DNA of 42,033 nt from Methylococcaceae bacterium (GTDB lineage: Bacteria; Pseudomonadota; Gammaproteobacteria; Methylococcales; Methylomonadaceae): assembly GCA_005779525.1 (NCBI GenBank), contig SXIZ01000163.1, positions 1-42,033 of the forward strand, given 5' to 3'. Made by a program: the position numbers and the translations under genes. Under the pieces are notes generated by a model, which saw nothing but the letters and a program-made list of their open reading frames with translations, did not search any database and was not told the origin of the DNA. Shown here one piece after another: positions 3,166-20,846 of this stretch. The number at the start of each line of letters is the position of its first letter. The first letter of the stretch is position 1.

Positions 3166-3182
3166 AGTTGCTCCGAGGCTGA

Positions 3183-4580
3183 TTATAGGGTGCGAATGTC
3201 TACAAAATGTCCCGCTGCAGCCGCGGCGGCGGCCATAGCTGGGGAGACTAGATGCGTACGTCCACCTTTACCTTGGCGACCTTCGAAGTTACGGTTCGAA
3301 GTAGACGCGCAGCGCTGACCTTTGCTTAATTCATCGCCATTCATGGCTAAACACATAGAACAACCCGGATCGCGCCATTCCCAACCTGCATCGATAAAAA
3401 TTTTATCTAAGCCTTCGGCTTCGGCTTGTTGTTTCACTTGATATGATCCTGGAACCGCAATTGCTGTAACGCCTGCGGCGACTTTGGTGCCTTTAGCAAC
3501 TTCGGCGGCAATGCGGAAATCTTCGATACGGCCGTTGGTGCATGATCCAATAAAGACGTAATCTACCGGAATATCAGTGATTTTAGTGTTAGGCGTTAAG
3601 CCCATGTAGGCGAGGGCACTTTCACAGGCTTTGCGTTTGCCTTCATCACTAAAACTTTCAGGTGCGGGCACGACATCGTTAACTCCACTGACTTGCTCGG
3701 GCGAAGTACCCCAAGAGACTTGAGGGGCAATGTCAGCCGCGTTTAATACGACAGTCGCATCGTAGCTGGCATCAGCATCGCTAGGGAGGCTTTGCCAATA
3801 GGCTAAAGCTTGATCCCAGGCAGCGCCTTTCGGTGCAAATTCTTTGCCTTGCAAAAAGGCGTAGGTCTTTTCGTCGGGTGCGATCAAGCCTGCACGAGCA
3901 CCTGCTTCAATAGCCATATTACATAAAGTCATGCGGCCTTCCATGCTTAACGCTTTAATGGCGTCGCCCGCATATTCGATGACATAACCTGTACCGCCCG
4001 CGGTACCAATTTTGCCAATAATGGCAAGTGCAATATCTTTGGCAGAAGAGAATTTGTTTAACTCACCATCAATCCTTACCAGCATGGTTTTGGATTTTTT
4101 TTGTGGCAAGGTTTGGGTGGCCATCACATGCTCAACTTCGGAGGTACCAATCCCAAAAGCCAGTGCGCCAAAAGCGCCATGCGTGGCAGTATGACTGTCA
4201 CCACAGACCACGACCATACCAGGGTGTACGAAACCATGTTCGGGCACGACAACATGGATCACTCCGTTATTTGGGCTTTGCATGTCATAAAGATTCAAAC
4301 CATTTTCGCGGCAGTTTTCCGCCATGACTTCAATTTGTTTTTTTGCAATCGGGTCAGCAATGGGTAAATTACGATTTTTAGTCGGGACGCAGTGATCCAT
4401 GGTCGCTAAAATACTATGTGGATTGCGAACTTTACGCCCTGACAGCCTTAAGCCTTCGAAAGCTTGTGGACTGGTAACTTCGTGCATCAAGTGCCGATCT
4501 ACATAGATTAACGGAGCCTGGCCCGCTGCTTCGGCAACTAGGTGGCTATCCCAAATTTTTTCATACATGGTTTTTTTCAT
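3183..4580 (-). CDS. leuC: 3-isopropylmalate dehydratase large subunit
   Basis: The track ORF begins at a TTG (4592). The ATG at 4580 gives [15 protein letters not shown], which aligns with the LeuC N-terminus. Aconitase-family Fe-S Cys motifs ([20 protein letters not shown]) and the conserved C-terminus [18 protein letters not shown] are present. Confidence 0.95.
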
Positions 4581-5103
4581 TGCGTATTCCAATCATTTAC
4601 AGGCCGATGCACCCAGGTGCGGGCCCGACATTAACTACAGGGTCAAAGTGACATTAAGCCCGACATTATCACCTAAACGTTACCTGGATTGCAATGTGCC
4701 GAAAGCCGTGGCAAGTAATTTCTAGTAAAAATTATTTTACGGAATACTTGAAAGAATTCAGTGTTCAAGTGTGTAGAATAGGGTAAAGATAATGATATGT
4801 GTTAGAGTAATTGCTGCTGCGCATCTTTGACTTTATATGATTAAATAGTCCCCTGTCATGCTGGTAGAGAAAGTATTAAGCGTTTCGGTGTAACGGAGGT
4901 GTGCAAATAAGTTGTTTTAAAATGATTTTAGTATATTGTTTAATAGTAAGAATTTAAAAAAATTGCTCAGTGACGGCCAGTTTACGTTGTAAATTCACTG
5001 AAAATATTTTTTTTTCGACTAGACTTAAACGCAGTAAGCCAAGCTTCTAGATGGTTAGGCAATGTTTTTGTTAAAAAATTTCTATTTATTTAAGGGGAAA
5101 ATA

Positions 5104-5466
5104 ATGGCGAGTATATTGGCAGTTGATGATTCTGCTTCAATGCGGCAGATGGTATCTTTCACGCTTAAAGGAGCAGGATATGATGTTGAAGAAGCGGTTG
5201 ATGGCGTTGATGCCTTAAGTAAAGCAAAAGCCAAAAAATTTGATTGTGTCGTAACCGACGTAAACATGCCCAATAAGGATGGTATCTCGTTAATTAAAGA
5301 TTTAAGAGCGCTTCCAGACTATAAATTTGTCCCATTGCTCATGTTGACGACCGAATCTGGCATGGATAAAAAACAGCAAGGTAAAGAAGCCGGGGCAACA
5401 GGGTGGATAGTCAAACCCTTTAATCCTGATCAGCTATTAAAAACAATCCAAAAAGTTCTAGGATAA
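5104..5466 (+). CDS. cheY: chemotaxis response regulator CheY (single receiver domain)
   Basis: The ATG at 5104 is preceded by AAGGGGA. 120 aa with receiver signature DDS...VVTDVNMPNKDG...T...KP. First gene of the che operon. Confidence 0.9.
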   Translation: MASILAVDDSASMRQMVSFTLKGAGYDVEEAVDGVDALSKAKAKKFDCVVTDVNMPNKDGISLIKDLRALPDYKFVPLLMLTTESGMDKKQQGKEAGATGWIVKPFNPDQLLKTIQKVLG

Positions 5467-5511
5467 GCGCTTATTGCATTGTCTGGTCTTTATTCGCGCG
5501 GGTAATTCTTT

Positions 5512-7602
5512 ATGGCTATTGATATGGCACAATTCCATCAGGTCTTTTTCGAAGAAAGTTTCGAAGGGCTTGAGGCAATGGAATCAGGATTGTTAAATCT
5601 TGACATGGGTGATGTGGATGTTGAAGAAATTAATACTATCTTTAGAGCGGCGCATTCTATAAAAGGTGGCAGTGGAACCTTTGGATTTACCGCTGTTTCG
5701 GATTTCACGCATGTCATGGAAACCTTATTGGATGAAATGCGTGATGGTCGACGTAAAGTCACACAACCTGCCGTCAATGTCCTGCTCGGGGCGGTAGATT
5801 GTTTGCGTGAAATGTTAACAGCGATTCAGAATGAGCAGGATATTGACACACAAAGTGTCGCAGAACACAAGCGACACCTGGATCAAGAGCTGCGCGGTGA
5901 AGTGAGTAATAGCGCTCAAGTCTCGCAGGTAGCTACAGCGAAACCCAAAACCGCTCCAGCGACGCTGAAATCAGTTGCACCTGGTTGGCGTATCACCTTT
6001 TGTCCGCATTTGGATATGTTAAAAACGGGAAACGATCCCGTGCGCATTTTCAGAGAATTGGCTAATCTTGGGGCCTTGGAAACCACGGTTGATCAAAAAG
6101 GTCTCCCCGATTTTTACGATTTGGACCCTGAAGAATGTTATTTATCTTGGGGGCTTAATGTCGCAGGGGATATTGCTCAGTCTAGCATAGAGGAAATATT
6201 TGATTGGGTTGAAGAAAATTGCGATTTATCTCTTCAATCATTTTCAGATTTGGCACAACGCGATTTAGCGCATCAACCCGGAGTTGTCGTATCGGATGAT
6301 GCCGATCCTACACATCATCAGCAAGATCTGAGTCACCCAGAACCTATCGAAGAGAGTTCGGACGCGGCAAAAGTTAAAACCGTTGCTAAAGAAGAAAGTA
6401 AGGTTGCCAATAAAGGTTCAAGCTCGATACGTGTCGAAACCAGCAAAATTGATACGCTGATTAACATGGTGGGTGAGCTGGTGATTACACAATCCATGCT
6501 GAGCTTGGTGGGTGAGCATTTTGAAATTGGCAAATTAGATCATTTAAAAAGTGGTTTAGCGCAGTTAGAGCGACATACTCGCGAATTACAAGAAAGTGTG
6601 ATGAATATTCGCATGTTGCCCATTAGCTTTGTATTTAGTCGTTTTCCTCGCTTAACCCATGATTTAAGTGCAAAATTAGGAAAAAAGATCGAGCTAAAAT
6701 TAGTCGGTGAGCACACAGAAGTCGATAAGACAGTGGTTGAATTAATCAGTGATCCACTTGTGCATTTAGTGCGTAATAGTTTAGATCATGGTATTGAAAT
6801 GCCGAATGAGCGTCTTGCGATGGGTAAACCAGAAACAGGCACAATTATTCTTGAAGCCTATCATCGGGGTGGCAATATTGTTATTGAAGTACGTGACGAT
6901 GGAAAAGGTTTAGATAAAGCCAAGTTACGTGCTAAGGCGATTGAAAAGGGTTTAATCGATAAAGATACGCCATTAACAGATAAGCAAACGTTCGAATTAA
7001 TTTTTATGCCGGGATTTTCCACTGCAGAGAAATTGACTGACATTTCTGGTCGGGGTGTAGGTATGGATGTCGTGCGCCGTAATATCCAGTCACTCGGTGG
7101 CAATATTGAAATCATTTCGGAGTTGGGTAAAGGGTCAACAATTGCTATTCACTTACCGTTGACCCTGGCAATTTTAGATGGTCAATCGATAGCCGTGGGT
7201 GATGAGACTTTTATCGTACCGCTAGTGTCCATCATTGAATCGATTAATGTGACTGATGCCATGACTAATAAAGTCGCTGGTAAGGGTGAAACCTTTAGAT
7301 TACGTGGGGATTATTTACCCATCATCCGCATGCATGAAATTTTTGATGTTAAAACTGCCAAAGCACAAAAACTCACTGAAGGCTTAGTGGTGGTGGTTGA
7401 GGGCCAAGGAATTCGTTGCGGATTGTTTGTAGATGATTTATTAGGGCAACAACAAGTAGTGATTAAATCATTAGAAGCTAATTATCGTCGGGTTGAAGGG
7501 GTTTCCGGGGCGACGATTTTAGGTGATGGATCAGTTGCGTTGATTTTGGACATTCCAGGTTTAGTTCGCTTGTCAAACCAAAAACATGCAGGTAGAGATT
7601 AA
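5512..7602 (+). CDS. cheA: chemotaxis histidine kinase CheA
   Basis: 696 aa. HPt motif HSIKGGSGTFGF, dimerisation and HATPase regions (DPLVHLVRNSLDHG, DDGKGLD, GRGVGMDVV), and a C-terminal CheW-like domain. Confidence 0.95.
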   Translation: MAIDMAQFHQVFFEESFEGLEAMESGLLNLDMGDVDVEEINTIFRAAHSIKGGSGTFGFTAVSDFTHVMETLLDEMRDGRRKVTQPAVNVLLGAVDCLREMLTAIQNEQDIDTQSVAEHKRHLDQELRGEVSNSAQVSQVATAKPKTAPATLKSVAPGWRITFCPHLDMLKTGNDPVRIFRELANLGALETTVDQKGLPDFYDLDPEECYLSWGLNVAGDIAQSSIEEIFDWVEENCDLSLQSFSDLAQRDLAHQPGVVVSDDADPTHHQQDLSHPEPIEESSDAAKVKTVAKEESKVANKGSSSIRVETSKIDTLINMVGELVITQSMLSLVGEHFEIGKLDHLKSGLAQLERHTRELQESVMNIRMLPISFVFSRFPRLTHDLSAKLGKKIELKLVGEHTEVDKTVVELISDPLVHLVRNSLDHGIEMPNERLAMGKPETGTIILEAYHRGGNIVIEVRDDGKGLDKAKLRAKAIEKGLIDKDTPLTDKQTFELIFMPGFSTAEKLTDISGRGVGMDVVRRNIQSLGGNIEIISELGKGSTIAIHLPLTLAILDGQSIAVGDETFIVPLVSIIESINVTDAMTNKVAGKGETFRLRGDYLPIIRMHEIFDVKTAKAQKLTEGLVVVVEGQGIRCGLFVDDLLGQQQVVIKSLEANYRRVEGVSGATILGDGSVALILDIPGLVRLSNQKHAGRD

Positions 7603-7607
7603 GACTT

Positions 7608-8150
7608 ATGTTGCAAACAGATACCAATAATGCCGACTATAAAACTGAAAATGAACCACGTTTAGCCAATATAGAACAATTTTTAAGTTTTGTGTTGGGA
7701 AATGAAGAATATGGGGTCAGTATTCTCCGGGTTCAGGAAATTCGCAGTTGGGAGCCTGTTTCACGGATTCCTAATGTTCCAGTCTACGAAAAAGGTGTCG
7801 TAAATTTACGTGGCGCGATTGTGCCAATTATTGATTTACGCGAACGCTTTAATTTAGGACGCGCTGAATATACGCCGCTGACGGTTGTCGTGGTTTTACA
7901 AGCCCAGGTGAACGGTAAATCACGTACCATGGGGGTGGTTGTCGACTCGGTATCCGATGTAGTGGATGTAGATAAATTCAGTATTCAACGTCCACCAGAT
8001 TTTGGGGCCAAAGTGAGTACCGAATTTATCAACGGCTTAGCTTCAGTTAATCAACGTATGGTGATGTTGTTGGATGTCGAAAAATTGCTTCGTCTAGATG
8101 GCATTGACGATATGGTCACCGAACTCGCTGAAAGTGAATCCAAGCACTAA
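7608..8150 (+). CDS. cheW: chemotaxis coupling protein CheW (copy 1)
   Basis: 180 aa. CheW-like domain ([22 protein letters not shown]...[16 protein letters not shown]). Starts 5 nt after cheA. Confidence 0.9.
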
Positions 8151-8179
8151 TTAATTTTCTACGTAGAAGGATATTTTAT

Positions 8180-10528
8180 ATGAGAGTTAACTTACCGATT
8201 ACAGATCGCGAAGTGGTTATGCAGCCCGGGACAATTCTCGTAACCAAAACCGATTTAAAAGGCATTATTACTTATGCCAATGACGCTTTTGTAGAGATAA
8301 GTGGCTTTACGCGTGAGGAGCTTATCGGTAAGAGCCATAACATCGTACGTCATCCAGACATGCCAGAAGTCGCTTTCCAGGATTTGTGGACTACAGTTAA
8401 ACAAGGACGACCTTGGACGGCCGCGGTAAAAAATCGTACCAAAAACGGTGATTATTATTGGGTCGAAGCTAATGTAACCCCTATGTTTGAGGGGCGAAAA
8501 GTCATAGGCTATCTCTCAGCCCGTTACGCCCCATCCCGCGAATTTATCAAGCAGTCGGCTGAGTGGTATCAGAAGTTGAATGCCTCGGGTGCGAAAACTA
8601 TGCGACCCACTGGAATGGTAGCTAAACTCAAATCCCTATTCGAATTACCACTTACATTTAAATTTAGCGTATTAGCTGTCGCGTATTTATTACCGCTGAT
8701 CTATTTCATGACTACGCTCTATCAGAATGGAAATTATTCTGCTTTAGCGATTGTAGGTGCGTGCGCGTTGACAGCGGTTGCCTTAAATTACAGTTTATTC
8801 CATTTGATCAATGCTACCTTAGAGAAAGGTACGGGAATCTGTTACCGCTTAGCCAATAAATCCTTTAGTAACAAAATAGACTTGAATCGTGAGGATAAGA
8901 TTGGAGATTTCTGGCGTGGCTTATATTCTATGCAGGTTCAGTTGCATGCAGACTTAGCATTCGCCCACGAAGAAGGGGCTAATGCTCAACGGATCAAACA
9001 AGCATTAGACAATGTCGCGTCGTCTGTGATGGTTGCAGATAATAATCTCAATATTATTTATCTCAATAATACGGTTAAAAAGTTATTTCAAAACGCTGAG
9101 AGTGATATTCAGAAGCAATTACCCAATTTTAATGCTGCAAAATTATTAGGATCTAATATTGATATTTTTCATAAAAATCCTGCGCATCAACGTCAGCTAT
9201 TGCTCAATTTGAGTTCTACTTTAAGTTCAAGTTTGCAAATTGGTGGTCGTTATTTAGACATCGTTGCTAATCCGGTGATTACTGAATCCGGCGTAAAAAT
9301 TGGGGTGGTGGTTGAATGGGTAGACCGTTCGAATGAAATTAAAATAGAAAATGAAATTGCAGTCCTCGTAGATGCGGTTAAATCCGGTGATTTGAGTAGT
9401 CGTATTGCCTTAGATGGGAAATCTGGATTTTACGCCAAGTTAAGTCAGGGTATCAATGAAATGAGTGATGTCATTGATCATGGTTTTGTGGATGTGTTGC
9501 AGGTGATGACCGGGATGGCTCAGGGTGATTTGACTCAATATGTGGATAATGATTATGCGGGTATTTATGCAGAATGCCGCGATCATATTAACGAGACCAC
9601 CGCTAAATTACGTGATGTATTTTCAGAAATTAGAGATGCAGCGGAATTTATCAATAACTCTTCACATGAGATTGCCAGTGGAAACAATAATTTATCACAG
9701 CGTGCGGAAGAACAAGCTTCAAGTTTAGAGCAGACCGCCTCAAGCATGGAAGAGTTGACCTCTACCGTTAAAAATAACTCCGATAATGCTCAACGTGCCA
9801 ATATCGTCGCCAGTGAGGCTAGAAATTTAGCTGAAAAAGGTGGGGATGTGGTTAATTCAGCGGTGGCGGCAATGCAAGAAATCAATGAAAGCAGCAACAA
9901 AATTGCTGAAATTATTGGTGTGATTGATGAAATTGCTTTCCAAACTAATCTCCTGGCGTTGAATGCCTCCGTTGAAGCGGCTAGAGCAGGTGAGCAAGGG
10001 CGAGGATTTTCGGTGGTCGCAACTGAAGTGCGCAATTTAGCGCAACGCAGTGCAACCGCTGCCCACCAAAGTAAAGAATTGATTCAAGCGAGCGTCTTAA
10101 AAGTCCGATCCGGTACACAATTTGTCAATGAAACTGGAAAATCACTCAATGCAATTGTGGATAGTATTAAACAAGTAGGTGATATAGTCGCTGAAATTGC
10201 TTCTGCCAGTGCACAGCAGTCCGCAGGAATTGAACAAGTCAATATGGCCGTTGCGCAAATGGACGAAATAACCCAACAAAATGCGGCTTTAGCTGAGCAA
10301 GCCTCGGCTGCAAGCATATCTATGAGTGAGCAAGCAGAGCGTATGACCGCTTTGCTAGATTTTTTTAAAGTCGAAGTCGATAGTAAACCTCTAAAGAATA
10401 ACACTGAGCTAAAAACCAATTCTCAGTCTAAGCATCAAAAAGCAACGCTTCAGACTTCTAAAATCTCCAAATCCACACACGCTGTGGATACTGAAACTGA
10501 TGCAGACGCAAATTGGGATGAGTTTTAG
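8180..10528 (+). CDS. methyl-accepting chemotaxis protein: N-terminal Aer-type PAS, TM hairpin, Aer2-type PAS, HAMP, signalling domain, C-terminal NWDEF pentapeptide
   Basis: 782 aa. The N-terminal PAS carries [17 protein letters not shown]...[12 protein letters not shown] (Aer-like). Two TM helices are joined by a ~6-residue loop. The internal PAS carries [16 protein letters not shown]...[10 protein letters not shown] (Aer2/McpB-like). Receptor tip is [34 protein letters not shown]. The protein ends in NWDEF. Confidence 0.9.
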
Positions 10529-10689
10529 CTATACCCTCTTTGGGATACACTTAAGAGTTGTCGTTGAATCAATACGAAAAGATTTTGAACAAGTGCATCC
10601 CATCGTATGAATTACGTGGACATTAGATTTGAAACAGGTTTGAAGATATCAGTTCCTGTAGGTATTAACTTAAGAGTGGAAAATTCATC

Positions 10690-11181
10690 ATGGTAAGCGA
10701 GACCGCAGATACTAAAAAAATTGAGCAATTTTTGACCTTTCAACTGGATGATGAAGCTTACGGCGTTGAAATTCTGAAGGTTCAGGAAATTCGTGGTTGG
10801 GAGCCTGTTCGGGTGATACCCAATACCCCGCATTACATTAAAGGGGCATTAAATTTGCGAGGCGCTATCGTCCCAATTGTGGATTTGCGGGAGCGTTTTG
10901 GCATGCAGGCTAAAGAGTATACTCCAGTCACCGTGGTCATCGTACTGTGCGTTGAAAATGCTTCAGGTAGCCATGTGATTGGACTAGTCGCGGATGCAGT
11001 TTCAGATGTTTTAGACATTCGCTCGGGAGATATAAAAAAATCTCCAGATCTGGGCTCTAAAATTGATACCCGATATATGCGCGGCATGTACGTATACAAG
11101 CAGGGTATGATTATGCTGCTGGATGCAGATCGATTGCTTAATCCGGCTGAATTTGAAGGCATCAGTCGTTTAGTGGAATAA
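10690..11181 (+). CDS. cheW: chemotaxis coupling protein CheW (copy 2)
   Basis: 163 aa. High similarity by eye to copy 1 across the core (FLTFQLDDEAYGVEILKVQEIRGWEPV...[16 protein letters not shown]). Confidence 0.9.
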   Translation: MVSETADTKKIEQFLTFQLDDEAYGVEILKVQEIRGWEPVRVIPNTPHYIKGALNLRGAIVPIVDLRERFGMQAKEYTPVTVVIVLCVENASGSHVIGLVADAVSDVLDIRSGDIKKSPDLGSKIDTRYMRGMYVYKQGMIMLLDADRLLNPAEFEGISRLVE

Positions 11182-11182
11182 T

Positions 11183-11944
11183 ATGAATGCGCGAGTGGTA
11201 GCAATTTTTAATCAGAAAGGCGGTGTGGGTAAAACAACTACTTCAACTAATCTGAGTCATGCGCTTGCAAAAGCAGGCAAAAAAGTAACCGTTATCGATT
11301 TTGATCCACAAGGACATTTGTCCATCTCACTGGGTATGTTAAATCGCCAAGCTTCTGGGATTGATGCCGTTTTACTCGATGGCGCAGATGTCTCTCAGTG
11401 TGTCATACCGATGCGAGAAAATCTTCAATTAATCCCTTCTGGACCCAAACTACATGACATCGAACTCATGAGCACGGGTGGCGCAAAGCGCAGTGAAATT
11501 TTGAGACATACTTTGTTAAATGACTTCCAAGACCAAGATTATGTGTTTATCGATTGTCCGCCTTCTTCTGGCTTATTGGTAGCAAATGTTTTATTTGCCA
11601 CGGATGAGATTTTAATTCCCATGAGCAGTGATTTTTTAGCATTGCAAGGGCTTTCAGATTTGATCAAAACTATTAGAAAATTTGAGCAGGTTTTAAAGAA
11701 AAAATACAAAACCCAAATAGTGATGGCACGCTATACTTCTAGTAGGAAATTTTCAAAAGAAGTCTTGGGTAAGTTACAGCAATATTTTCCCCAACAAATT
11801 TTAGCGACTGTAATCCGTGAGACTGCGGTATTGTCTGAATGCACTAGTTTTGGCATGACAATTTTTGAGTATCGACCTAAAAGTGTATCGGCGAATGATT
11901 TTCACAATTTAGCCAAAGATTTTTTGCAAGGTAAGGTGATGTAA
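11183..11944 (+). CDS. ParA/MinD-family P-loop ATPase embedded in the che operon
   Basis: 253 aa. Deviant Walker A FNQKGGVGKTTTS, A' box VIDFDPQGH, Walker B YVFIDCPPS. The ATG lies 1 nt after the cheW2 stop, and its TAA overlaps the next ATG (TAATG). Confidence 0.9.
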   Translation: MNARVVAIFNQKGGVGKTTTSTNLSHALAKAGKKVTVIDFDPQGHLSISLGMLNRQASGIDAVLLDGADVSQCVIPMRENLQLIPSGPKLHDIELMSTGGAKRSEILRHTLLNDFQDQDYVFIDCPPSSGLLVANVLFATDEILIPMSSDFLALQGLSDLIKTIRKFEQVLKKKYKTQIVMARYTSSRKFSKEVLGKLQQYFPQQILATVIRETAVLSECTSFGMTIFEYRPKSVSANDFHNLAKDFLQGKVM

Positions 11945-12393
11945 TGGCAAAAAAACAAGAAGAAAGTTTGCTGGGTTATGATCCATTAGCGTGGATGAAT
12001 GAGGAACCGCAAGGCGAGGAAGTTTCTGCTGCGCAAGAGCAAGAGCAAGTAGCGTCTGCTACCGAGCACAGTTCCAATGCTCAAGTAACTCAAGAAAATC
12101 AACTCAAAGTGGTTTTGGAAGCGGTTCAAAATATTCAAAATGTCGCTAATTTACGTGAGGAGATTATTAGTAAATTAGAAAATAGTTTGGGAGCTATCGA
12201 AATTGATGCCTCTGCGGTAAATTCAATTGATACTGCCACCTTACAATTATTTGTGGCCCTTAAAAAAGAAACCGATCGATTAGAACGGGTATTAGTTTTC
12301 GATTTTCCTTCAGAAAGATTTCTGGAGGCCGCTAATCTAATAGGGGTCAGCAAATTATTAGAGCTTGATAAATCTGCCTCTGGATTTTTCTGA
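11944..12393 (+). CDS. STAS-domain protein with basic N-terminal peptide and acidic linker
   Basis: 149 aa. N-terminus MAKKQEESLLGYDPLAWM, then an E/Q-rich linker of about 45 aa. The C-terminal ~95 aa show a STAS-like pattern (IEIDASAVNSIDTATLQLFVAL...VLVFDFPSERFLEAANLIGVSKLL). The STAS assignment is by eye only. Confidence 0.65.
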   Translation: MAKKQEESLLGYDPLAWMNEEPQGEEVSAAQEQEQVASATEHSSNAQVTQENQLKVVLEAVQNIQNVANLREEIISKLENSLGAIEIDASAVNSIDTATLQLFVALKKETDRLERVLVFDFPSERFLEAANLIGVSKLLELDKSASGFF

Positions 12394-12473
12394 GGGTTTC
12401 CCAATTTGTACGATGAACAAAATATCTGCACAAGATATTTTGCAGTTTTGATAGTTGATTAGGGGATTACACA

Positions 12474-13304
12474 GTGAGTAAAGCACGTGAATTTGAATAT
12501 ACGCGGGAGGATTTTAATTTTTTGCGAAAATTATCGAACGAATATTCAGGTATCATAGTTTCTGATGACAAATTTGATATGTTTTATTCGCGCCTATCGA
12601 AACGGGTTAGAGTGCTAGGTCTGCAAAGTTTTAAAGAATATTGTGTTTATTTGGAGAATAATCCAGAAAAAGAATTTACCGATTTTATGAATTCAGTGAC
12701 GACGAATTTGACGTCATTTTTTCGTGAAAATCATCATTTTGAATATCTGAAACAGACGCTCATTCCGATATTACTGAAAAAAAACAGTGCCAGCAAAAAA
12801 ATAACGCTGTGGTCGGCAGGATGTTCAACCGGGGAAGAGCCGTATTCTTTGGCGATGACCTTGTTAGAAAATGTACCCGCTGGCTGGGAAATAAAAATAC
12901 TGGCGACCGATTTAGATACGAATGTACTGAAAGCTTCCGCTGAAGGTATTTACACAACAGACCGTATTGGTGGGCTATCGCCCGAGCGTTTAAAACGCTG
13001 GTTTAAACAAGGGACGGGTGTGAATGCTACCAAGATTAAAGTTAAACCGGAATTACAGGCATTAATTCGCTTCCGCCAATTGAACCTCATGCGTGAATGG
13101 CCCATGAAGGGAAAATTTGATTTTATTTTTTGTAGGAATGTTTTGATTTATTTTGATCGGGAAACTAAAAGTCAGTTAGCCCAACGTTACGCGCAATTTT
13201 TAGAGCCCGCTGGACTACTGTTTATTGGGCATTCAGAGTCACTGCACCAATTAACTACAGATTTTGAGTTAATTGGTAATACCATTTATAAGAAAAAAGG
13301 CTAA
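12474..13304 (+). CDS. cheR: chemotaxis protein methyltransferase CheR
   Basis: 276 aa, GTG start. Motifs TNLTSFFRE, WSAGCSTGEEPYSLAM and FCRNVLIYFD are typical of CheR. Confidence 0.92.
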   Translation: MSKAREFEYTREDFNFLRKLSNEYSGIIVSDDKFDMFYSRLSKRVRVLGLQSFKEYCVYLENNPEKEFTDFMNSVTTNLTSFFRENHHFEYLKQTLIPILLKKNSASKKITLWSAGCSTGEEPYSLAMTLLENVPAGWEIKILATDLDTNVLKASAEGIYTTDRIGGLSPERLKRWFKQGTGVNATKIKVKPELQALIRFRQLNLMREWPMKGKFDFIFCRNVLIYFDRETKSQLAQRYAQFLEPAGLLFIGHSESLHQLTTDFELIGNTIYKKKG

Positions 13305-13310
13305 TAACTA

Positions 13311-13937
13311 ATGGAGTTAAGTCCACCTTCGGTTGCAGGTTTTGAAAATATTTCTCGCTATTGGGACAAAATTAATAATACGGTGGCTGCTAAGCTACTC
13401 CCTGGGGAGTATTATGTCACCAAAGAAAATGAGATGATTACCACGGTGCTTGGCTCTTGCATTTCGGCCTGTATACGCGACAAGATCTCAGGGATTGGAG
13501 GCATGAACCATTTTATGCTTCCCGAAACTTCGCAATCGCGGCTGGATGAAGGGCGCGAGTCAGTAGTAGGTAATGCAACACGCTATGGCAACTACGCTAT
13601 GGAGCATTTGATCAATACCATTTTGGCGAATGGTGGTAAGCGTAAAAATCTCGAAGTTAAAGTATTTGGAGGAGGGAAAATTATCGCGTCACTCGGCGAT
13701 GTCGGGCTAAAAAATATTACTTTTGTTATGGATTATATAGATACTGAGGGACTACTCTTGGTCTCTAAGGATTTAGGCGATATTTATCCGCGTAAAATAA
13801 ATTTTTACCCGCAGTCAGGTCGTGTACGTATGAAGAAAATTCAGGATTTGCATAATGACACGATTGCTCTACGCGAAAGTCAATACCGCCGTACCATTAA
13901 AGATGTACCCGTGGTTGGTGATGTGGAATTGTTTTGA
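13311..13937 (+). CDS. cheD: chemoreceptor glutamine deamidase CheD
   Basis: 208 aa. CheD signature (TVLGSCISACIRD...GMNHFMLP...KVFGGG). Confidence 0.88.
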   Translation: MELSPPSVAGFENISRYWDKINNTVAAKLLPGEYYVTKENEMITTVLGSCISACIRDKISGIGGMNHFMLPETSQSRLDEGRESVVGNATRYGNYAMEHLINTILANGGKRKNLEVKVFGGGKIIASLGDVGLKNITFVMDYIDTEGLLLVSKDLGDIYPRKINFYPQSGRVRMKKIQDLHNDTIALRESQYRRTIKDVPVVGDVELF

Positions 13938-13946
13938 GAAGTGTAC

Positions 13947-15059
13947 ATGGAAAAAATAAAACTGCTTATAGTTGATGATTCGGCGCTGATACGCAAAATT
14001 CTGACTGAAATTTTTAATTCAGCCCCCGATATAGAAGTGGTTGGAGTTGCTGAAGATCCGCTGATTGCTAGGGAGTTGATCAAAAAACTTAACCCAGACG
14101 TATTAACTTTAGATGTTGAAATGCCGCGTATGGATGGCATAACGTTTTTACGCAATTTAATGCGTTTGCGCCCCATGCCTGTAGTGATGATTTCAACTTT
14201 AACTGAAAAAGGTGCGGATATCACTCTTGAAGCTTTGGGTATCGGGGCTGTTGATTTTGTGCCAAAACCTAAAGTCGATGTCAAAAGTACTTTTAATGAC
14301 TATGCTGAAGATATTATTGCTAAAGTCCGTATGGCCTCTAAAGCTAAAATTCAGGGCGTGGAAGTTACAAATTCTACTTCAGGGAGTAAGCGGGCTGTAA
14401 AATCTTTACCTCCTACGGTTCTCGGATGCTCACAAAATAATTCGGTGGACATTATTATTCCAGCTCTCCTAGAGCGGCCACTAATCAGAAAAACTGAAAA
14501 AATTATTGCCTTAGGCTCGTCGACTGGCGGTACCGAAGCAGTAAAAGTTGTCGCGCGCGAGTTGCCTGAGAATACGCCCGCCATTTTGATCTCGCAACAT
14601 TTGCCTGTTGCGTTTAGTGCGTCTTTTGCCAAGCATGTGAACGATATCTCTCCCATGCAGGTGTCACTTGCTGAAGATGGGCAACCCATTTTGCCTGGCA
14701 ATATTTATATTGCGCCTGGAGATAAACATTTGTTAGTGTTGCGGGAGGCAGGGCGGTATATTTGTCGTTTGCATAGTGGTCCGCCAGTGAATCGGCACAA
14801 ACCCTCGGTTGATGTGATGTTTCGTTCAGTTGCGCAGCAGGTAGGATCTAATGCTATTGGGGTGATGTTAACCGGAATGGGTGCGGATGGTGCACGGTGC
14901 ATGAAGGAAATGCGTGATGCGGGCGCTAGAAATATCGTTCAAGATGAGGAATCGAGTGTGGTTTGGGGAATGCCAGGCGAAGCTTACCGATTAGGAGCGG
15001 CTGAAGTGGTAGTTCCTTTAAATCAGATTGCTAAACAAATACTTAAATTTGCGAGTTAA
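13947..15059 (+). CDS. cheB: protein-glutamate methylesterase/deamidase CheB
   Basis: The track ORF starts at GTG 13941; the ATG at 13947 gives [12 protein letters not shown]. It has a receiver domain plus a methylesterase domain ([21 protein letters not shown]). Confidence 0.92.
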
Positions 15060-15070
15060 CGGGAGGCAAA

Positions 15071-16261
15071 ATGAAACACTTTCTATCTAGAAACTGGTTG
15101 CCTATCGCATTGACGCTAATTTTGTTGGTTCTGCCAATGGCATTGCCAACACAGTACCTTTTTTGGATTGCCGTACCCCTTATTTCTTTAACGTGGGCCA
15201 TTAACGGTTATCAGCAAGTGAAACAAGCTGAGCAACAGCAGTTGGAGCTTGATCGACAAAATCAGTTGCAAAATATTGCGGCGATAGATACTTATTTGCA
15301 GGCTTTAGATGGCTGTATTAAACAAGAAGTGCAGCAGTTTATTGCCGATTTAGGACAGCTTCGCTCTGTAGTCGGTGACGCTGTGAACACCATGGGAAAT
15401 AGTTTTAAAAGCTTGCATAGCTTGTCATCCGATCAGGCGAGAATCGTCTTCTCAATTGTGGGCAATACTGGGAAAAATGATAAGGCAATTAGTTTTACGC
15501 GCTTTGCCGAAGAAACCGATCAAGTACTACGCTATTTTATCGATCATATTTTATTGATTAGCAAACAAAGTATGGAAATGGTGGCGGTGATTGGCGATTT
15601 GCGGGAACACATGGGTTTAGTAGAAAAACTGGTGAGTGATGTTCAAGGGATTGCTGATCAAACCAATCTGTTGGCGCTAAATGCAGCTATTGAGGCCGCT
15701 CGTGCTGGTGAAGCGGGGCGTGGCTTTGCCGTTGTTGCCGAAGAGGTGCGTAATTTATCGAAAAATTCCGATAAATTTAGCGAAGAAATTCGCAAAGTGG
15801 TTAATGCTTCGAAATCCAACATCGAGCGAGCGAATCAAATGATAGAGACCATGGCCTCCAAAGACATGAATGTTGCAATAACCTCTAAATCTAAAATTGA
15901 TCAAATGATGGCGGATATTGCGGTTATGAATGTCGCGATGGAGCAGAAATTATTGCAGGTCTCAGAATTAAGCAAACATTTGGATTTTACAGTGAACGAT
16001 GCCGTTAGAGGCTTGCAGTTTGAAGATTTAACCCGTCAATTAATCGAATACCTTCAAGGAAATACGCGGCATTTCCAAGTCCTTGCTGAGGAAGTACGTT
16101 TAGGCTTAGGGATTTTTAAAACCGATGATCCGCAATTGTGGGTGGGTGAACTGGAAAGTGGTCAAAAACGTTTACTCACGATGCAGCAAGATTGGCAAGA
16201 TAAAGGAAAAAAAATTGTGGCTCAGAACTCAATGTCGGAAGGCGAAATTGAAATGTTCTAG
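15071..16261 (+). CDS. short membrane-anchored methyl-accepting chemotaxis protein without a periplasmic sensor domain
   Basis: 396 aa. Two adjacent N-terminal TM helices have almost no loop between them. Coiled coil follows, then the tip [34 protein letters not shown]. The protein ends in EIEMF. GGGAGG RBS. Confidence 0.88.
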
Positions 16262-16315
16262 ATAAACAACTATCCTCATAGTATTTAAGAATAACGAAAC
16301 TTAGAGAGAAATATA

Positions 16316-16621
16316 ATGGCGGTAACAACTAACTTCGATGCATCAAAATCGATTTTAACTATCAAAATTGCTGGTCGATTTGATTTTGGTGCCCATCAAG
16401 ATTTTCGGAATGCTATAGATCAAATTAAGTTGACTACCAAACAAGTTGTGATTGATTTTTATGCGACAGAGTACATGGATAGCTCGGCTTTAGGTATGCT
16501 GTTGGTATTACGCGATAAAGTCAGTACGAGCTCTCAATCTATTAAGTTAATGAATATTCGGCCAGAAGTTAGAAAGATATTGGAAATTGCGAATTTTGAT
16601 AAATTATTTAATCTGGGATAA
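16316..16621 (+). CDS. STAS-domain anti-sigma-factor antagonist (SpoIIAA/RsbV/CrsA/HsbA-like)
   Basis: 101 aa. Typical STAS pattern with a candidate phospho-serine in YMDSSALGMLLVL, followed by NIRPEVRKILEIANFDKLF. Confidence 0.85.
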   Translation: MAVTTNFDASKSILTIKIAGRFDFGAHQDFRNAIDQIKLTTKQVVIDFYATEYMDSSALGMLLVLRDKVSTSSQSIKLMNIRPEVRKILEIANFDKLFNLG

Positions 16622-16829
16622 TAGGTGAGTTGCTGAAAAAGCCAAGAATGTATGATGTTCTATGCGTGATATTAATTTAAAAGTATTGTATTCTAGAAAA
16701 TTGAATGCTTTGTTTGAAGTGCTATCTTTACCGCAGCAACACACTTTTGGGCTGAGTCAAGTGACATTCAACGCTGTTTTATGAGCTTGGCGATAAATGC
16801 AGAATTTAATGGTTTAAAAATAAAAAAAT

Positions 16830-18512
16830 ATGACCGATTCATTAGCTTTACCTCATGCCAGAATTCTCGTTGCTGACGATAGTCGCTTACAACGTGAAAT
16901 GCTGGCGAGCTTGTTAGGTGATATCGGCTACCAAATTATCTTGGCAGAAGATGGTTTTGCAGCATTAGAGCTATTCAAAGCGCACCAACCTGATTTAGTG
17001 TTACTGGATATTATGATGCCTAAGTTGGACGGCATCCAAGTGGCTAGAGAAATTGCTGCACTTTTGAAAAATGATTATGTCCCGATTGTGTTCATTACCA
17101 GTATGGATACCGAAGACTTACTCAATAAATGCGTTGCTGCGGGGGGTGATGACTTTATTAACAAGCCTTATAACAGTGTTCTGCTCAGTGCCAAAATCAA
17201 TTCCTTATTACGCGTTAAAAGGCTGTATGAAGAACTGCGCAGTCAAAAACATGAGTTGCTAAAGTATCAGGAACTATACGAACAAGAACAACAAGTCGCA
17301 GCAAGTTTATATAAAAATATTTTACACGCGGATTTTGTTGAAACTTCCATCTTACGCTATTCACTGTCCCCAATGGCCTTATTTAATGGGGATATTCTAT
17401 TAACGTCCAAGGCTCCAGGAAATCGCTTTTATGTGTTGTTAGGGGATTTTACGGGGCATGGATTATCCGCGTCCATCGGCGCTGAGCCAACGGCACAAAT
17501 ATTCTATGGGATGGCGCGTAAAGGCTTCGCTGGCGAAGAAATTATTAAAGAAATCAATCGCAAATTACATAAGCTTTTACCGGTAAATATGTTTCTGGCG
17601 ACCACCTTGGTGACTTTACGCGCCGATTCCAGTTTTATGGAAATCATTACCTGTGGTTTACCCGCACATTATCTGTTACATAAACCGACGCGCAAAATCC
17701 GCAGTATTGAATCTAAGAACTTTCCCTTAGGCATCATGGCGACTTATGAGCCTAAAGTGGAATATTTTGAAATTGATCACCATGATTATCTGTATTTGTT
17801 CACAGACGGTGTGATTGAGGCCCAAAATATCGCAGGGCAGCAATTTGATATTTCTGGGGTCATGGCGTGTCTGGAAAATGAAGTCGAGTCACCGTATGAC
17901 AGTATCTTACATAATCTTGCCGTGCATACTCAGGGTTTGGAGCAGCAAGATGATGTCACTTTTGTGGAATTGCATTGTGATTTGAAAAATGCAATTTGGC
18001 AATCAGTCGGTAAGCCACTGGCGGTACAAAAATGTCCTGCATTAACCTGGAGTAGTAAGTTAAGCTTCAGTGTCGAAACTTTGCAACAAGTTAACCCGGT
18101 TCCTGTGATGTTGAATATGCTGATGGATATTCAGGCATTACAGAGTTTCCAGGAAGCGATTTTTTGTATCGTAAATGAATTATTTATCAATGCCTTGGAT
18201 TATGGGCTATTGGCGATGGATGGCAAATTAAAACTGACTTCCGAAGGTTTAATTAAATTTCATGCGATTAAAGAACAACGCTTACAAGAAGTCAAAACTG
18301 GGTCTATAGTGGTAGATTTTCAGCATCAACCTACCGAGGTGGGCGGGCGTTTACAAATTAGCTTAAAAGATTCCGGCGCAGGATTTGATTTTGCAGCGGA
18401 ATTGAAACCAAATCGTGGCATTTATCGGGTACATACCCTGTGCTCTAAATTGGAATATGGCAATGGTGGGCGTGAAGTTTTAGCTGTTTTTGATTGGAGC
18501 TATCAAGAATAA
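16830..18512 (+). CDS. three-domain response regulator: receiver + PP2C/SpoIIE phosphatase + RsbW-like GHKL kinase/anti-sigma domain (CrsR/HsbR-like)
   Basis: 560 aa. Receiver (ILVADDS, DLVLLDIMMPKLDG, KP). PP2C motifs (GDFTGHGLSAS, YLYLFTDGVIEA, QQDDVTFVEL). C-terminal N-box-like ELFINALDYG and G1-like LKDSGAGFD. Confidence 0.85.
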   Translation: MTDSLALPHARILVADDSRLQREMLASLLGDIGYQIILAEDGFAALELFKAHQPDLVLLDIMMPKLDGIQVAREIAALLKNDYVPIVFITSMDTEDLLNKCVAAGGDDFINKPYNSVLLSAKINSLLRVKRLYEELRSQKHELLKYQELYEQEQQVAASLYKNILHADFVETSILRYSLSPMALFNGDILLTSKAPGNRFYVLLGDFTGHGLSASIGAEPTAQIFYGMARKGFAGEEIIKEINRKLHKLLPVNMFLATTLVTLRADSSFMEIITCGLPAHYLLHKPTRKIRSIESKNFPLGIMATYEPKVEYFEIDHHDYLYLFTDGVIEAQNIAGQQFDISGVMACLENEVESPYDSILHNLAVHTQGLEQQDDVTFVELHCDLKNAIWQSVGKPLAVQKCPALTWSSKLSFSVETLQQVNPVPVMLNMLMDIQALQSFQEAIFCIVNELFINALDYGLLAMDGKLKLTSEGLIKFHAIKEQRLQEVKTGSIVVDFQHQPTEVGGRLQISLKDSGAGFDFAAELKPNRGIYRVHTLCSKLEYGNGGREVLAVFDWSYQE

Positions 18513-18574
18513 GACGGCAATCACTTGGGTGAGGCAATTCTAGGATTCATGGTAAAAAGTAGGGGCGGTAACGC

Positions 18575-19189
18575 ATGAGAAAAAATCAAACAAATTCGCA
18601 GTTCGTGGCTGTGGCTTCAATTGCAGCGGAACTCAGTGCCGTTATGGATGTGGCTAAGGAAATATCTCTGGCGGCGGCAAACGCAAAAGCGATTGCCTTT
18701 CGGGCGGGGGAGAAAGCTAAAGGTTTTCAACCTATCACAGATTTTATTAATGAGTTGGCCAAGGACACCATTGAATTAGTTAATGAAATTAATCAACACG
18801 CCATGCAATTATATCAATTGACTGTGGATGAATATCGCATGACAGAAGCGCATAACAAATTTGAATTAGCCGCAAAATATGCCAAAGGTGCGCAGTATGA
18901 GCAGTCATTAAATGCGCCGCGGCTAAAAGCACAGCAAAACATGCAGGATTGTTTGCGTCAATTTAATGCCCATATTGCACAATTACTCGATCAACTGGGT
19001 GAAGTGATGCACCCTGCCCGTGCTGCACGAGTGATCGCTGCGAACTCACGTATTGAGGCTTCGCAAGCTGGAGAATACTTACAAAGTTTACAGGCAGTAG
19101 CCGAGAGCGTCGATAACGCGGCGCAAGTTATTCACGATAACGTGCAGCGGTGCCGCAGCGCTTTATCATTTATTACGATCACAGAATAG
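18575..19189 (+). CDS. soluble protein with two degenerate MCP receptor-tip motifs
   Basis: 204 aa with a good RBS. No TM segment or HAMP domain. Residues ~31-63 (SLAAANAKAIAFRAGEKAKGFQPITDFINELA) and ~150-184 (ARVIAANSRIEASQAGEYLQSLQAVAESVDNAA) both align with the tips of the two MCPs in this operon. Confidence 0.7.
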   Translation: MRKNQTNSQFVAVASIAAELSAVMDVAKEISLAAANAKAIAFRAGEKAKGFQPITDFINELAKDTIELVNEINQHAMQLYQLTVDEYRMTEAHNKFELAAKYAKGAQYEQSLNAPRLKAQQNMQDCLRQFNAHIAQLLDQLGEVMHPARAARVIAANSRIEASQAGEYLQSLQAVAESVDNAAQVIHDNVQRCRSALSFITITE

Positions 19190-19217
19190 TGACAGATCAG
19201 CTAGGGTAGGGTTACGC

Positions 19218-19946
19218 ATGAAAATGACAAAAATTTACGAAGGATCGTATCAGTGGATTATGTATGGGCGTGATGAAAATAAACCCAACAATATTATTGA
19301 TACCAATCAATATATTGTAAGAACTGCGAATCGTTGTTTGTTGATTGATCCAGGTGGAATAGAATTATTTGCTCCGATGCTGGCAGCGGTATTACACCAT
19401 GCACCTGTCGAGCAAATCACTGATTTATTTGCGTCGCATCAAGATCCAGATATTATTTCTTCCTTGGGATTATGGGATCAGGCTTTGCCCAATGCTAAAC
19501 TTCACGCCCCTGCAATTTGGGAAGGTTTTTTGCGCCATTTCGGCTGTGATAGCATTGAATATGTCGCTATTCCAGATAATGGTGGGGTAATTCGATTAGA
19601 AAATGTAGAATTAAAAATTATTCCTGCGCATTATTTGCACTCTTCAGGGAATTTTCATATTTATGATCCCAATGCCAAAATCTTGTTTTCCGGAGATGTG
19701 GGTGCTGCCTTGGAAACACCGGGTGCGCCAATGTATGTCGATAATTTTGATGCTCACGTAGAAAAAATGCGTTACTTTCACCAACGTTGGATGCCATCGA
19801 ATCAAGCAAAACGCAATTGGATAGAACGTGTCCGAGAACTGGATATTGACGTGCTCGCACCACAACATGGTCGTGTCTTTAAAGGTGATGATGTTCGCCG
19901 CTTCCTGGATTGGTTTGAAGGATTACAAGTGGGGACCGCTGTTTAA
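19218..19946 (+). CDS. metallo-beta-lactamase-fold protein, ODP (oxygen-binding di-iron protein)/flavodiiron-core-like
   Basis: 242 aa. MBL-type ligand pattern LLIDPGG...SHQDPD (H74, D76, D78)...PAHYLHS (H138/H141)...FSGD (D160)...PQHG (H217). No flavodoxin domain. Last gene of the che operon. Confidence 0.65.
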   Translation: MKMTKIYEGSYQWIMYGRDENKPNNIIDTNQYIVRTANRCLLIDPGGIELFAPMLAAVLHHAPVEQITDLFASHQDPDIISSLGLWDQALPNAKLHAPAIWEGFLRHFGCDSIEYVAIPDNGGVIRLENVELKIIPAHYLHSSGNFHIYDPNAKILFSGDVGAALETPGAPMYVDNFDAHVEKMRYFHQRWMPSNQAKRNWIERVRELDIDVLAPQHGRVFKGDDVRRFLDWFEGLQVGTAV

Positions 19947-19989: not shown

Positions 19990-20019
19990 TTGACAAACCC
20001 CCTTTAAAACCGTTATCTT
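19990..20019 (+). promoter_or_regulatory. candidate sigma70 promoter for thiD (TTGACA-N18-TATCTT)
   Basis: A perfect -35 TTGACA lies at 19990-19995 and a weak -10 TATCTT at 20014-20019. The -10 overlaps the terminator stem. Pattern match only. Confidence 0.3.
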
Positions 20020-20040
20020 TCCTGATAACGGTTTTTTTAT
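20006..20040 (+). terminator. Rho-independent terminator closing the chemosensory operon
   Basis: AAAACCGTTATC (20006-20017), loop TTTCCT, GATAACGGTTTT (20024-20035), running into a T-rich tract (TTTTTTTATTTT). Confidence 0.85.
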
Positions 20041-20054: not shown

Positions 20055-20846
20055 ATGAGTTCAATTCGGCCCGTAGTTCTATGTTTTTCCGGGCATGATC
20101 CCTGTGGCGGTGCGGGTTTGCAAGCAGATATTGAGGTACTTATTTCGCATCGTTGTCACGCTGCGACGGTGGTGACCGCGTTGACTGAACAGGATACGCA
20201 TAATATCCGTAAAGTTATTCCTCAAACTGCTGCCGAGTTCAAAGCACAAGCGCTTACAATTCTGAGTGATTTACCTGTGAAAGTCATCAAAATAGGTTTG
20301 CTTGGAAGTTATGACATTATTCTAGCGGTGCAAAAAATTCTGCAAGCGTATCCGAATATCCCGGTGGTGTTTGATCCGATTCTAGCTGCAGGTGGTGGAA
20401 TGCATTTGGCAGATGACGATTTACGGCAAGCAATGATAGAACGAATATTACCGCATACGTTTATTTGTACTCCAAACTCGCACGAGGCAAGGCAACTTAC
20501 CCAGTTGGATGATTTAAAAGCGTGTGGACGTGCGTTATTAGAGATGGGCTGTAAAAATGTACTGCTAACTGGGGCGCATGAAGATACCCGAGCGGTACGT
20601 AATCAACTTTTTCGCCCCGAGGAGACGGTAGAAACCTTTACCTGGGAACGCTTAGGTCATCAGTATCATGGTTCTGGTTGTACCTTGGCATCCAGTATAG
20701 CGGCTTTATTGGCACATGATCTGGATTGCTTCGTCGCTGTCAGTGAAGCGCAAGAATATACCTGGAATGCCCTCAGTAAGGCCTATCCTACGGGAACGGG
20801 CCAATACAATCCCAATCGATTTTTTTGGGTGGATGATGAAAATTAA
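20055..20846 (+). CDS. thiD: hydroxymethylpyrimidine/phosphomethylpyrimidine kinase
   Basis: 263 aa. ThiD/PfkB-family pattern (VLCFSGHDPCGGAGLQADI, VKIGLLGS, VVFDPIL, HGSGCTLASSIAALLA). Confidence 0.88.
   Translation: MSSIRPVVLCFSGHDPCGGAGLQADIEVLISHRCHAATVVTALTEQDTHNIRKVIPQTAAEFKAQALTILSDLPVKVIKIGLLGSYDIILAVQKILQAYPNIPVVFDPILAAGGGMHLADDDLRQAMIERILPHTFICTPNSHEARQLTQLDDLKACGRALLEMGCKNVLLTGAHEDTRAVRNQLFRPEETVETFTWERLGHQYHGSGCTLASSIAALLAHDLDCFVAVSEAQEYTWNALSKAYPTGTGQYNPNRFFWVDDEN

Follow-up and report, generated by a model that had tools for sequence, protein, structure and literature searches.

The chemosensory systems Che2 of Pseudomonas aeruginosa, cluster III of Vibrio cholerae and Che1 of Shewanella oneidensis share a core gene order and an McpA/Mlp44-like receptor, and their physiological output has stayed unexplained although they have been studied for two decades in Pseudomonas, Vibrio and Shewanella. 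The che1 locus of S. oneidensis comprises cheY1, cheA1, cheW1, aer2, cheR1, cheD1, cheB1, mcpA, crsR and crsA, forms one transcription unit by reverse transcription PCR and is classed as F7 (Fortier et al. 2022, PMC9855816). Its authors proposed that Che1 regulates RpoS through CrsR and CrsA (PMC9855816); RpoS is bound by CrsR and by HsbR, both of REC-PP2C-GHKL build (PMC6482189). Cluster III of V. cholerae has two cheW genes, and a C-terminal pentapeptide E-W/V-E-x-F was described on its System III receptors Mlp45 (Aer2) and Mlp44 (PMC11940527). Here we describe an operon of this kind in a stretch of 42,033 nucleotides (contig SXIZ01000163.1, assembly GCA_005779525.1; the window), a metagenomic contig from an uncultured Methylococcales methanotroph. 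Between positions 5104 and 19946, 15 genes join the chemosensory core to a ParA-like ATPase with its putative STAS partner, a partner switch, an Aer/Aer2 hybrid receptor, and an oxygen-binding di-iron protein (ODP) with its presumed receptor partner. Most of these parts are already known; the way of combining them is new. The anatomy of the operon is well supported, and with moderate confidence we read it as an expanded F7-type array with O2/redox inputs, ParA positioning, a CheY that does not serve the motor, and an accessory sigma switch.

The open reading frame listing and scans with Pfam and NCBIfam gave family support for every one of the 15 genes, all of which lie on the forward strand. 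Distances between consecutive genes, taken from the coordinates, are 45, 5, 29, 161, 1, −1, 80, 6, 3, 11, 54, 208, 62 and 28 nucleotides. A first-pass annotation, made from the letters of the DNA, had listed 15 co-directional open reading frames with gaps from −1 to 208 nucleotides, and the listing, the Pfam matches and the coordinates bore it out. For cheY, the start at 5104 (AAGGGG, six nucleotides, ATG) is better than the longest-frame start at 5062. Independent gene calls were available for two public metagenome contigs with an identical ODP protein; they contain the same genes, from the 782-residue receptor through ODP and beyond.

To place the operon among its relatives, loci were collected with CheB as query, one genome per species and 10-kb flanks, which resulted in 80 loci (labelled with L-numbers), and all 15 window proteins were mapped onto them. 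The nearest loci belong to Methylococcales, with CheB identities of 61-72% (Methylomonas, Methylomarinum, Methyloprofundus, Methylomicrobium and Methylicorpusculum), followed by Methylophaga, Thiomicrorhabdus and other gammaproteobacteria. The complete 15-gene order was found in L010, L020, L023 and L026, that is, in at least four other species-level genomes. It recurs in L025 together with a second receptor gene, where the locus stops short of cheY, and on partial contigs in L004 and L021. Apart from a single thiD-like gene in L024, about 7 kb downstream and on the opposite strand, no synteny of the flanks was seen among the Methylococcales loci. Because the gene order is kept while the flanks differ, the cluster moves or persists as a unit, and its recurrence in many Methylococcales genomes puts the arrangement beyond chance. 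The make-up of the modules is mosaic among relatives. In L017, for example, the ODP and the 204-residue receptor gene stand directly after cheB and everything else is lost. Among the relatives, Methylomonas lenta R-45370 carries the ParA-like gene and the tagged STAS gene, Methylomicrobium sp. wino1 carries the ODP and its 204-residue receptor but lacks ParA, and Methylomarinum vadi and Methylomarinum sp. Ch1-1 carry the 204-residue receptor. The accessory genes are thus co-conserved with the che core in part of the order Methylococcales, with the 560-residue regulator of the partner switch as an optional member.

The core consists of CheY (5104-5466; Response_reg, E 4e-27), CheA (5512-7602; Hpt, dimerisation, HATPase and CheW-like domains in Pfam), two copies of CheW (7608-8150 and 10690-11181; PF01584, E 1.7e-36 and 2.5e-34), the methyltransferase CheR (12474-13304; CheR, E 4.5e-64, and CheR_N), the deamidase CheD (13311-13937; PF03975, E 2.3e-26) and the methylesterase CheB with its receiver domain (13941-15059; Pfam). 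The order cheY-cheA-cheW-aer2-type receptor-cheR-cheD-cheB, the McpA/Mlp44-like receptor and the absence of cheZ agree with the published gene lists (PMC9855816, PMC11940527), and the second CheW is shared with V. cholerae cluster III. Neither cheZ nor cheV was found in the Pfam scans of the cluster genes. CheY matched the solved structures 4h60 and 4hnr best, end to end and with 151 bits, compared with about 81-87 bits for CheY of E. coli and Salmonella and for VcCheY3. Both structures are of VcCheY4, the cluster III CheY of V. cholerae; the depositing paper shows that this protein does not bind FliM (PMC3774744). By sequence, the CheY of this operon is thus an ortholog of VcCheY4, and an action on FliM appears unlikely. 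Together with the Aer2-type heme PAS, the 36H signalling module and the C-terminal pentapeptides described below, all of which recur in F7-type systems, the gene order and the CheY scores uphold the earlier assignment to Che2/cluster III. On sequence grounds, the orthologs of the core are V. cholerae cluster III, P. aeruginosa Che2 and S. oneidensis Che1, so that its gene content, receptor features and CheY make it F7-type.

The same core could belong to an ordinary aerotaxis or energy-taxis system in which the flagellar motor is the main target of CheY, as it is for the E. coli F7 system, and the additional genes are side branches. Such a system would account for the full adaptation set and the pentapeptide-bearing receptors. 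CheY is also the best conserved protein of the cluster (82-98% identity across the Methylococcales loci, compared with 68-79% for CheA), and many relatives have kept the core but not the regulator. Flagellar genes for hook and rod (29053-32085 and onward, forward strand; flgD, flgE and an flgF/G-like gene) begin 9 kb downstream of the operon, so that a motor output is possible, and hypoxia induces chemotaxis genes in Methylomonas denitrificans (PMC12607906). The CheY scores speak against the motor, since the 151 bits are to a protein that fails to bind FliM and only about 85 bits to motor-binding CheYs; so does the lack of cheZ and cheV in the cluster. In V. cholerae, moreover, deletion or overexpression of the system genes caused no detectable chemotaxis phenotype (PMC11940527). 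The related Methyloprofundus INp10 has three cheABWY sets (PMC8788690), so another set can serve the motor there, which fits a non-motor role for the set described here. Taken together, we consider aerotaxis through the motor unlikely and retain the non-motor array as the preferred reading.

The main receptor of the operon (782 residues, 8180-10528, forward strand) had been described as Aer2-like in the first pass. The Aer2 part of this description stood, but the protein is not simply Aer2-like: it is an Aer/Aer2 hybrid, which is new. Residues 14-133 correspond to the flavin adenine dinucleotide (FAD)-type PAS domain of E. coli Aer (8dik, E 8e-38), with the motif NIVRHPDMP within the matching stretch. 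Two hydrophobic helices, read as membrane helices, follow the Aer PAS and precede the Aer2 module. Residues 265-477 match the PAS-HAMP structures of Aer2 (3vol, E 3e-62; 4hi4, E 1e-37), that is, a heme PAS and a di-HAMP. In the alignment with Aer2, the stretch FHKNPAHQR and the Trp in EWVDRS have identical counterparts, at the positions of its heme His and its O2-stabilising Trp. Residues 445-736 align with Tsr 231-522 at equal length, which places the signalling module in class 36H. Compared with Aer2, which has N-terminal HAMPs or a second heme PAS, this receptor carries an Aer FAD-PAS module and is membrane-anchored. About 20 Methylococcales orthologs have the hybrid build, whereas the Methylophaga-type orthologs are soluble. 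The protein ends in NWDEF, and its orthologs likewise have xWxxF ends, e.g. EWEEF and EWDEF. In L012, L014, L022 and L025, the hybrid receptor is longer (1054-1181 residues) or present in a second copy, with the second hydrophobic segment at about residues 455-463; this shifted position suggests that the longer versions carry an inserted domain.

The second membrane receptor (396 residues, 15071-16261, forward strand; MCPsignal, E 1.4e-28) is a short McpA/Mlp44-like protein with an N-terminal hydrophobic hairpin and no periplasmic domain. All 46 orthologs, in loci between L002 and L080, end in E-G-[EDNL]-[IV]-[ED]-L-F, although their overall identity is merely 31-60%. In the window the end is EGEIEMF (16241-16261), in keeping with the E-V-E-x-F form of the System III pentapeptide. 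Both membrane receptors of the operon thus carry a C-terminal pentapeptide of the E-W/V-E-x-F type.

Next to the second cheW, the operon encodes a ParA/MinD-family ATPase (11183-11944, forward strand; AAA_31, E 6.6e-47, with further matches to CbiA and ParA) that has the deviant Walker A motif KGGVGKT at residues 12-18. Of the 26 Methylococcales loci, 22 have the ParA-like gene; a further 10 loci, from other gammaproteobacteria, carry it with 43-48% identity. The next gene encodes a 149-residue STAS protein (11944-12393, forward strand; STAS_2, E 1e-8) made up of an N-terminal peptide, an acidic linker, the STAS domain and a C-terminal GFF; it is present in all 26 Methylococcales loci. From its conservation, the N-terminal peptide, MAKKQEESLLGYDPLAWM (about 11944-11997), is a candidate ParA-partner peptide. 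In the clade of this ATPase, the gene at the ParA stop codon or a few bases past it opens with a DPL-type peptide in 32 of 33 loci. The peptide has the form of a K/R-rich stretch followed by G-x-DPLAW, with DPLS in three loci. What differs is the protein that bears it. In Methylococcales it is the 149-residue STAS protein, in the Methylophaga-type loci (L029, L031, L036, L040 and L044) the N-terminus of a soluble Aer2-like receptor of 843-938 residues, and in L069 and L071 other small proteins. On the STAS protein, the peptide is conserved in 22 of 22 Methylococcales loci with ParA, compared with 0 of 4 loci without ParA, where it is absent or degenerate (counts uncorrected for kinship). This co-loss, together with the conservation of the tag, supports the earlier view of the ParA-like/STAS pair as a positioning module, in which the charged peptide would mediate the interaction with the ATPase. 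A function of the ATPase in plasmid or chromosome partition was considered as well and rejected, because the gene has a constant position within the che operon and the tag varies together with it.

Positioning systems of this build are known from PpfA/TlpT of Rhodobacter sphaeroides and ParC/ParP of Vibrio. In both, as here, a ParA/MinD ATPase is encoded within a che operon, and its partner immediately downstream consists of an N-terminal charged peptide, a linker and an array-binding part. The N-terminus of TlpT is said to be the part that binds PpfA. ParP contains a CheW-like domain, whereas the partner here, which would serve as the adaptor, bears a STAS domain. TlpT is itself a 36H receptor that binds PpfA (PMC6829392); the tag in the window sits on a STAS protein instead. 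The Methylophaga-type relatives conform to the PpfA/TlpT type, with the tag on a soluble Aer2-like receptor right after the ATPase, as in TlpT. ATPases of the ParC type occur in the Thiomicrorhabdus loci, with no more than 23-27% identity. As a general rule, the partners of ParA/MinD ATPases act through N-terminal peptides (PMC10241942; PMC11407121), and a tag at the N-terminus of the downstream partner fits this rule. What is new is the pairing of this ParA-like ATPase with a DPLAW-type tag gene and, in this lineage, the placement of the tag on a STAS protein. The DPLAW-type peptide is a candidate address tag for cargo recognition by ParA/MinD proteins. A STAS homolog without the tag is retained upstream of cheY in the Methylophaga-type loci, which suggests that the 149-residue STAS protein is itself a component of the array. 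Two further features of this protein were noted. A C-terminal A-[AS]-G-F-F is conserved in most ParA-containing Methylococcales, and an invariant Thr (in IDTAT) occupies the position of the phospho-Ser of the small STAS protein described below.

The last two genes of the operon encode a soluble receptor of 204 residues (18575-19189, forward strand; TM14 as best PDB match) and the ODP (19218-19946, forward strand; PF19583, E 1.4e-72). The ODP aligns with the solved ODPs 6qrq (E 3e-63) and 6qnm (E 9e-55) over residues 9-240. The blocks HQDPD, LHS.GNF, FSGD.GAA and APQHG are identical to those of 6qrq, which places the protein in the ODP fold with its di-iron site and predicts that it binds metal and O2. 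The two genes lie side by side in all 11 loci that have them, and no other accessory genes are as well conserved (ODP 81-84%, 204-residue receptor 72-79% identity). No membrane-spanning segment was seen in the sequence of the receptor, although no formal scan was made, and it has no sensor domain. In Treponema denticola, an ODP and a receptor without sensor domain (TDE2498/TDE2496) form an oxygen sensor for chemotaxis, and the ODP works with the F2 system (PMC7666581). As in that pair, an ODP-family protein is encoded here beside a small receptor without membrane or sensor domains, but the pair belongs to an F7/Che2-type system. An ODP is reportedly paired with TM14 in Thermotoga maritima. TM14 forms a homodimer.

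The presumed ODP partner differs from TM14 in its number of tips: TM14 has a single tip in mid-chain, whereas the 204-residue protein has two tip hairpins per chain and is hence not a single hairpin that dimerises. Each half by itself has TM14 as best PDB match, at the tip (residues about 83-129), with E values of 1e-5 and, for the second half, 0.005, and the halves align mutually (residues 13-46 with 134-167, 35% identity). In 26 members of the family, most positions within residues 8-84 and 137-197 do not vary, whereas the middle does. AlphaFold2 predicted four helices (3-48, 52-102, 110-162 and 166-200) with a predicted local distance difference test score of 82.7 and a predicted template modelling score of 0.70. 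We infer that a single chain imitates a receptor-dimer tip, its two hairpin tips lying at the same end. The AlphaFold2 model counts for less in that it is a monomer calculated from a shallow alignment, and the top matches of the fold search, designed single-chain four-helix bundles, were weak (TM-scores 0.37-0.47). The matches to TM14 and the constant adjacency nevertheless support the initial suggestion of a receptor-tip mimic paired with an ODP. The presumed partner is a tandem double-tip receptor, probably of a single-chain four-helix build, which is new. The family has 479 detectable members; the best 120 of these are at least 74% identical, and their named organisms are all Methylococcales or unclassified gammaproteobacterial. 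Such a double-tip receptor would be a naturally occurring equivalent of the single-chain receptors that have been engineered for studies of CheA control.

Between the 396-residue receptor and the ODP pair, two genes encode a putative partner switch. The first product is a single-domain STAS protein of 101 residues (16316-16621, forward strand; STAS, E 2.5e-15), an anti-sigma-factor antagonist of the CrsA/HsbA type that reaches the cutoff of TIGR00377. Its Ser56 lies in the sequence DSSAL, and DS[SA]A[LM] is present in 34 of 34 orthologs. The second is a CrsR/HsbR-like regulator of 560 residues (16830-18512, forward strand) with a receiver (Response_reg, E 2.2e-25), a PP2C domain (SpoIIE, E 1.5e-32) in which the motifs GDFTGHG, TDG and DDVT are visible, and a C-terminus which we read as GHKL, albeit divergent. 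When the PDB was searched with a profile built from 11 orthologs, GHKL domains were the only matches, with SenB as the best (E 7e-4), followed by VraS, RsbW and RetS, and the N-box (E..N) and G1-box (DxGxGF) are invariant among the orthologs. The domains, the ortholog profile and the DSSAL motif are in favour of the CrsR/CrsA-type switch that had been predicted. The components of this stretch (cheB-mcpA-STAS-REC/PP2C/GHKL) are also those of the che1 unit of S. oneidensis. The HsbR/HsbA and RsbU/V/W switches share the REC-PP2C-kinase build and a STAS antagonist whose conserved Ser is the phosphorylation site; in HsbA, the position mutated is likewise Ser56. HsbR of P. aeruginosa differs in that it is fed by HptB from hybrid kinases and not by a CheA, and the kinase domain of the regulator described here is very divergent.

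Several observations weigh against this switch as the output of the array. The C-terminal 170 residues of the regulator alone match HATPase_c_2 weakly (E 0.003; 18 bits compared with a cutoff of 27.4). The regulator was found in 10 loci, each with the small STAS protein; of the related operons that retain the core and span this region, about half lack the regulator. In seven loci (L002, L006, L007, L012, L013, L015 and L016), the 101-residue STAS protein occurs alone. Methylophaga-type homologs of the regulator in L036 (about 12.7-14.0 kb), L043 (6.0-7.3 kb) and L069 (11.6-12.9 kb) have about 420 residues and lack the receiver, so that the switch in these loci cannot be driven by phosphotransfer. 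In the accessible literature, no demonstration of CheA1 as phosphodonor of CrsR was found. Both the step from CheA to the regulator and the sigma target are what we infer from the sequence. The absence of the regulator in about half of the relatives makes the partner switch an accessory output branch and not the defining one. The proposal of the first-pass annotation that the output is control of a sigma factor rather than the motor is therefore not established, considering that absence and the relatives without receiver.

A further challenge to an integrated array is that the 15 genes lie side by side without functioning as a unit. The McpA-like receptor and/or the ODP receptor would then feed an F6 array, the STAS/regulator pair would be driven by another kinase, and internal promoters would lie in the gaps of 161 and 208 nucleotides. 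Precedents exist. McpA of S. oneidensis is co-transcribed with che1 yet works with an F6 system, Che3 (PMC9855816), which means that adjacency does not prove shared signalling. The ODP of T. denticola serves an F2 system and HsbR is fed by HptB, as described above. A possible alternative kinase adjoins the operon: a 1540-residue multi-PAS hybrid histidine kinase with receiver and Hpt, a 322-residue REC-HATPase_c_2 protein (an RsbW-type kinase with receiver) and a 369-residue REC-HD protein are encoded on the reverse strand (21188-27829), 1.2 kb downstream of the operon. These genes resemble an HptB/HsbR-like route and could be alternative partners of the STAS proteins. Modules were also gained and lost independently among close relatives. 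In opposition to this explanation, at least four species preserve every module in the same order and with tight spacing, between flanks that differ, and the ODP and its receptor directly follow cheB in L017, where all else is lost. The 396-residue receptor bears the System III-type C-terminal motif, and the gap before the regulator is just 28-117 nucleotides in other loci, compared with 208 nucleotides in the window. We therefore assign a low probability to a set of unconnected neighbours.

The transcription signals bear on the same question. An intrinsic terminator follows the last gene (20006-20035, forward strand; 12-bp stem and T-run, −14.7 kcal/mol) and is the strongest of the region. It had been called the only canonical terminator, which slightly overstates the case: the hairpin is real, but a second terminator-like site, a 9-bp hairpin followed by T7, lies within the receptor gene (10333-10356, forward strand). 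This hairpin is located in the last 200 nucleotides of the gene, and the gap of 161 nucleotides before the second cheW comes next, so that it may be a site of attenuation, of partial stop or of processing. Region-wide, 20 terminator-like sites were found compared with 15.8 ± 4.4 in shuffled sequences, i.e. no enrichment. Downstream of ODP, a clear terminator was seen in few of the orthologous loci (the window, L015), which means that it is not a conserved feature. No sigma-54 site was found upstream of cheY and no enrichment of sigma-70-like sites in the region, and a promoter was not identified; neither result decides against internal promoters. Inspection of the two long gaps showed nothing recognisable. 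Transcription of the 15 genes as one unit is plausible, with the two gaps and the internal hairpin counting against a single transcript.

For the integrated F7-type array that we favour, the following mechanism can be proposed. The FAD PAS, the heme PAS and the ODP would report O2, redox state and possibly Fe(II), all to one CheA array. The ParA-like ATPase would position or partition this array by recognising the N-terminal peptide of the 149-residue STAS protein, whose STAS domain would bind the array, in a role like that of ParP for ParC and of the TlpT N-terminus for PpfA. Phosphorylated CheA would pass its phosphoryl group to CheB, to the CheY4-like CheY, for which FliM is probably no target, and, in operons that have the 560-residue regulator, to the receiver of that protein. 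The receiver would set the balance between the PP2C and kinase activities of the regulator towards Ser56 of the small STAS protein, and the state of the latter would sequester or release a sigma factor, as CrsR/CrsA do with RpoS. A wider generalisation, doubtful as a whole, is that Che2/cluster III arrays are ParA-positioned oxygen hubs: FAD, heme and di-iron sensors would report to one CheA, the di-iron sensor through a natural single-chain pseudo-dimer receptor, the output of CheA would be phosphorylation of a REC-PP2C-GHKL regulator, which would free a stress sigma factor, and DPLAW would be a portable tag carried by a receptor or by a STAS adaptor. If this were true, the function of this class of chemosensory systems, long in question, would become apparent from methanotrophs that possess the complete operon.

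The first-pass annotation had also claimed that the combination of accessory modules was not described as a unit. This holds for the wider combination but not for two of its parts, since the core with McpA and CrsR/CrsA is published for S. oneidensis (PMC9855816) and the ODP with its receptor for T. denticola (PMC7666581). Its central idea is not new either, since control of RpoS had been put forward for Che1. Relative to the known F7 systems, five genes are additional here: the second CheW (in comparison with Shewanella), the ParA-like ATPase, the tagged STAS protein, the double-tip receptor and the ODP. The host, a methanotroph, is a further difference, and no paper on the system in methanotrophs was found. 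The methanotroph operon joins candidate inputs (three oxygen/redox sensors), a candidate output (the partner switch) and a positioning system, and its relatives represent natural "deletions" of each module. A single conserved operon with such deletions makes the hypotheses directly testable and suggests which proteins interact. For methanotroph ecology, O2 sensing at the methane-oxygen interface is central, and the operon is a likely sensor system for it.

An Rfam scan of the window gave no RNA family. Housekeeping genes flank the operon on both sides. Upstream, the reverse strand (892-4592) carries leuA-like and leuC/leuD-like genes. Immediately downstream of the terminator, a thiD-like kinase and a small cytochrome c are encoded on the forward strand (20055-21183).

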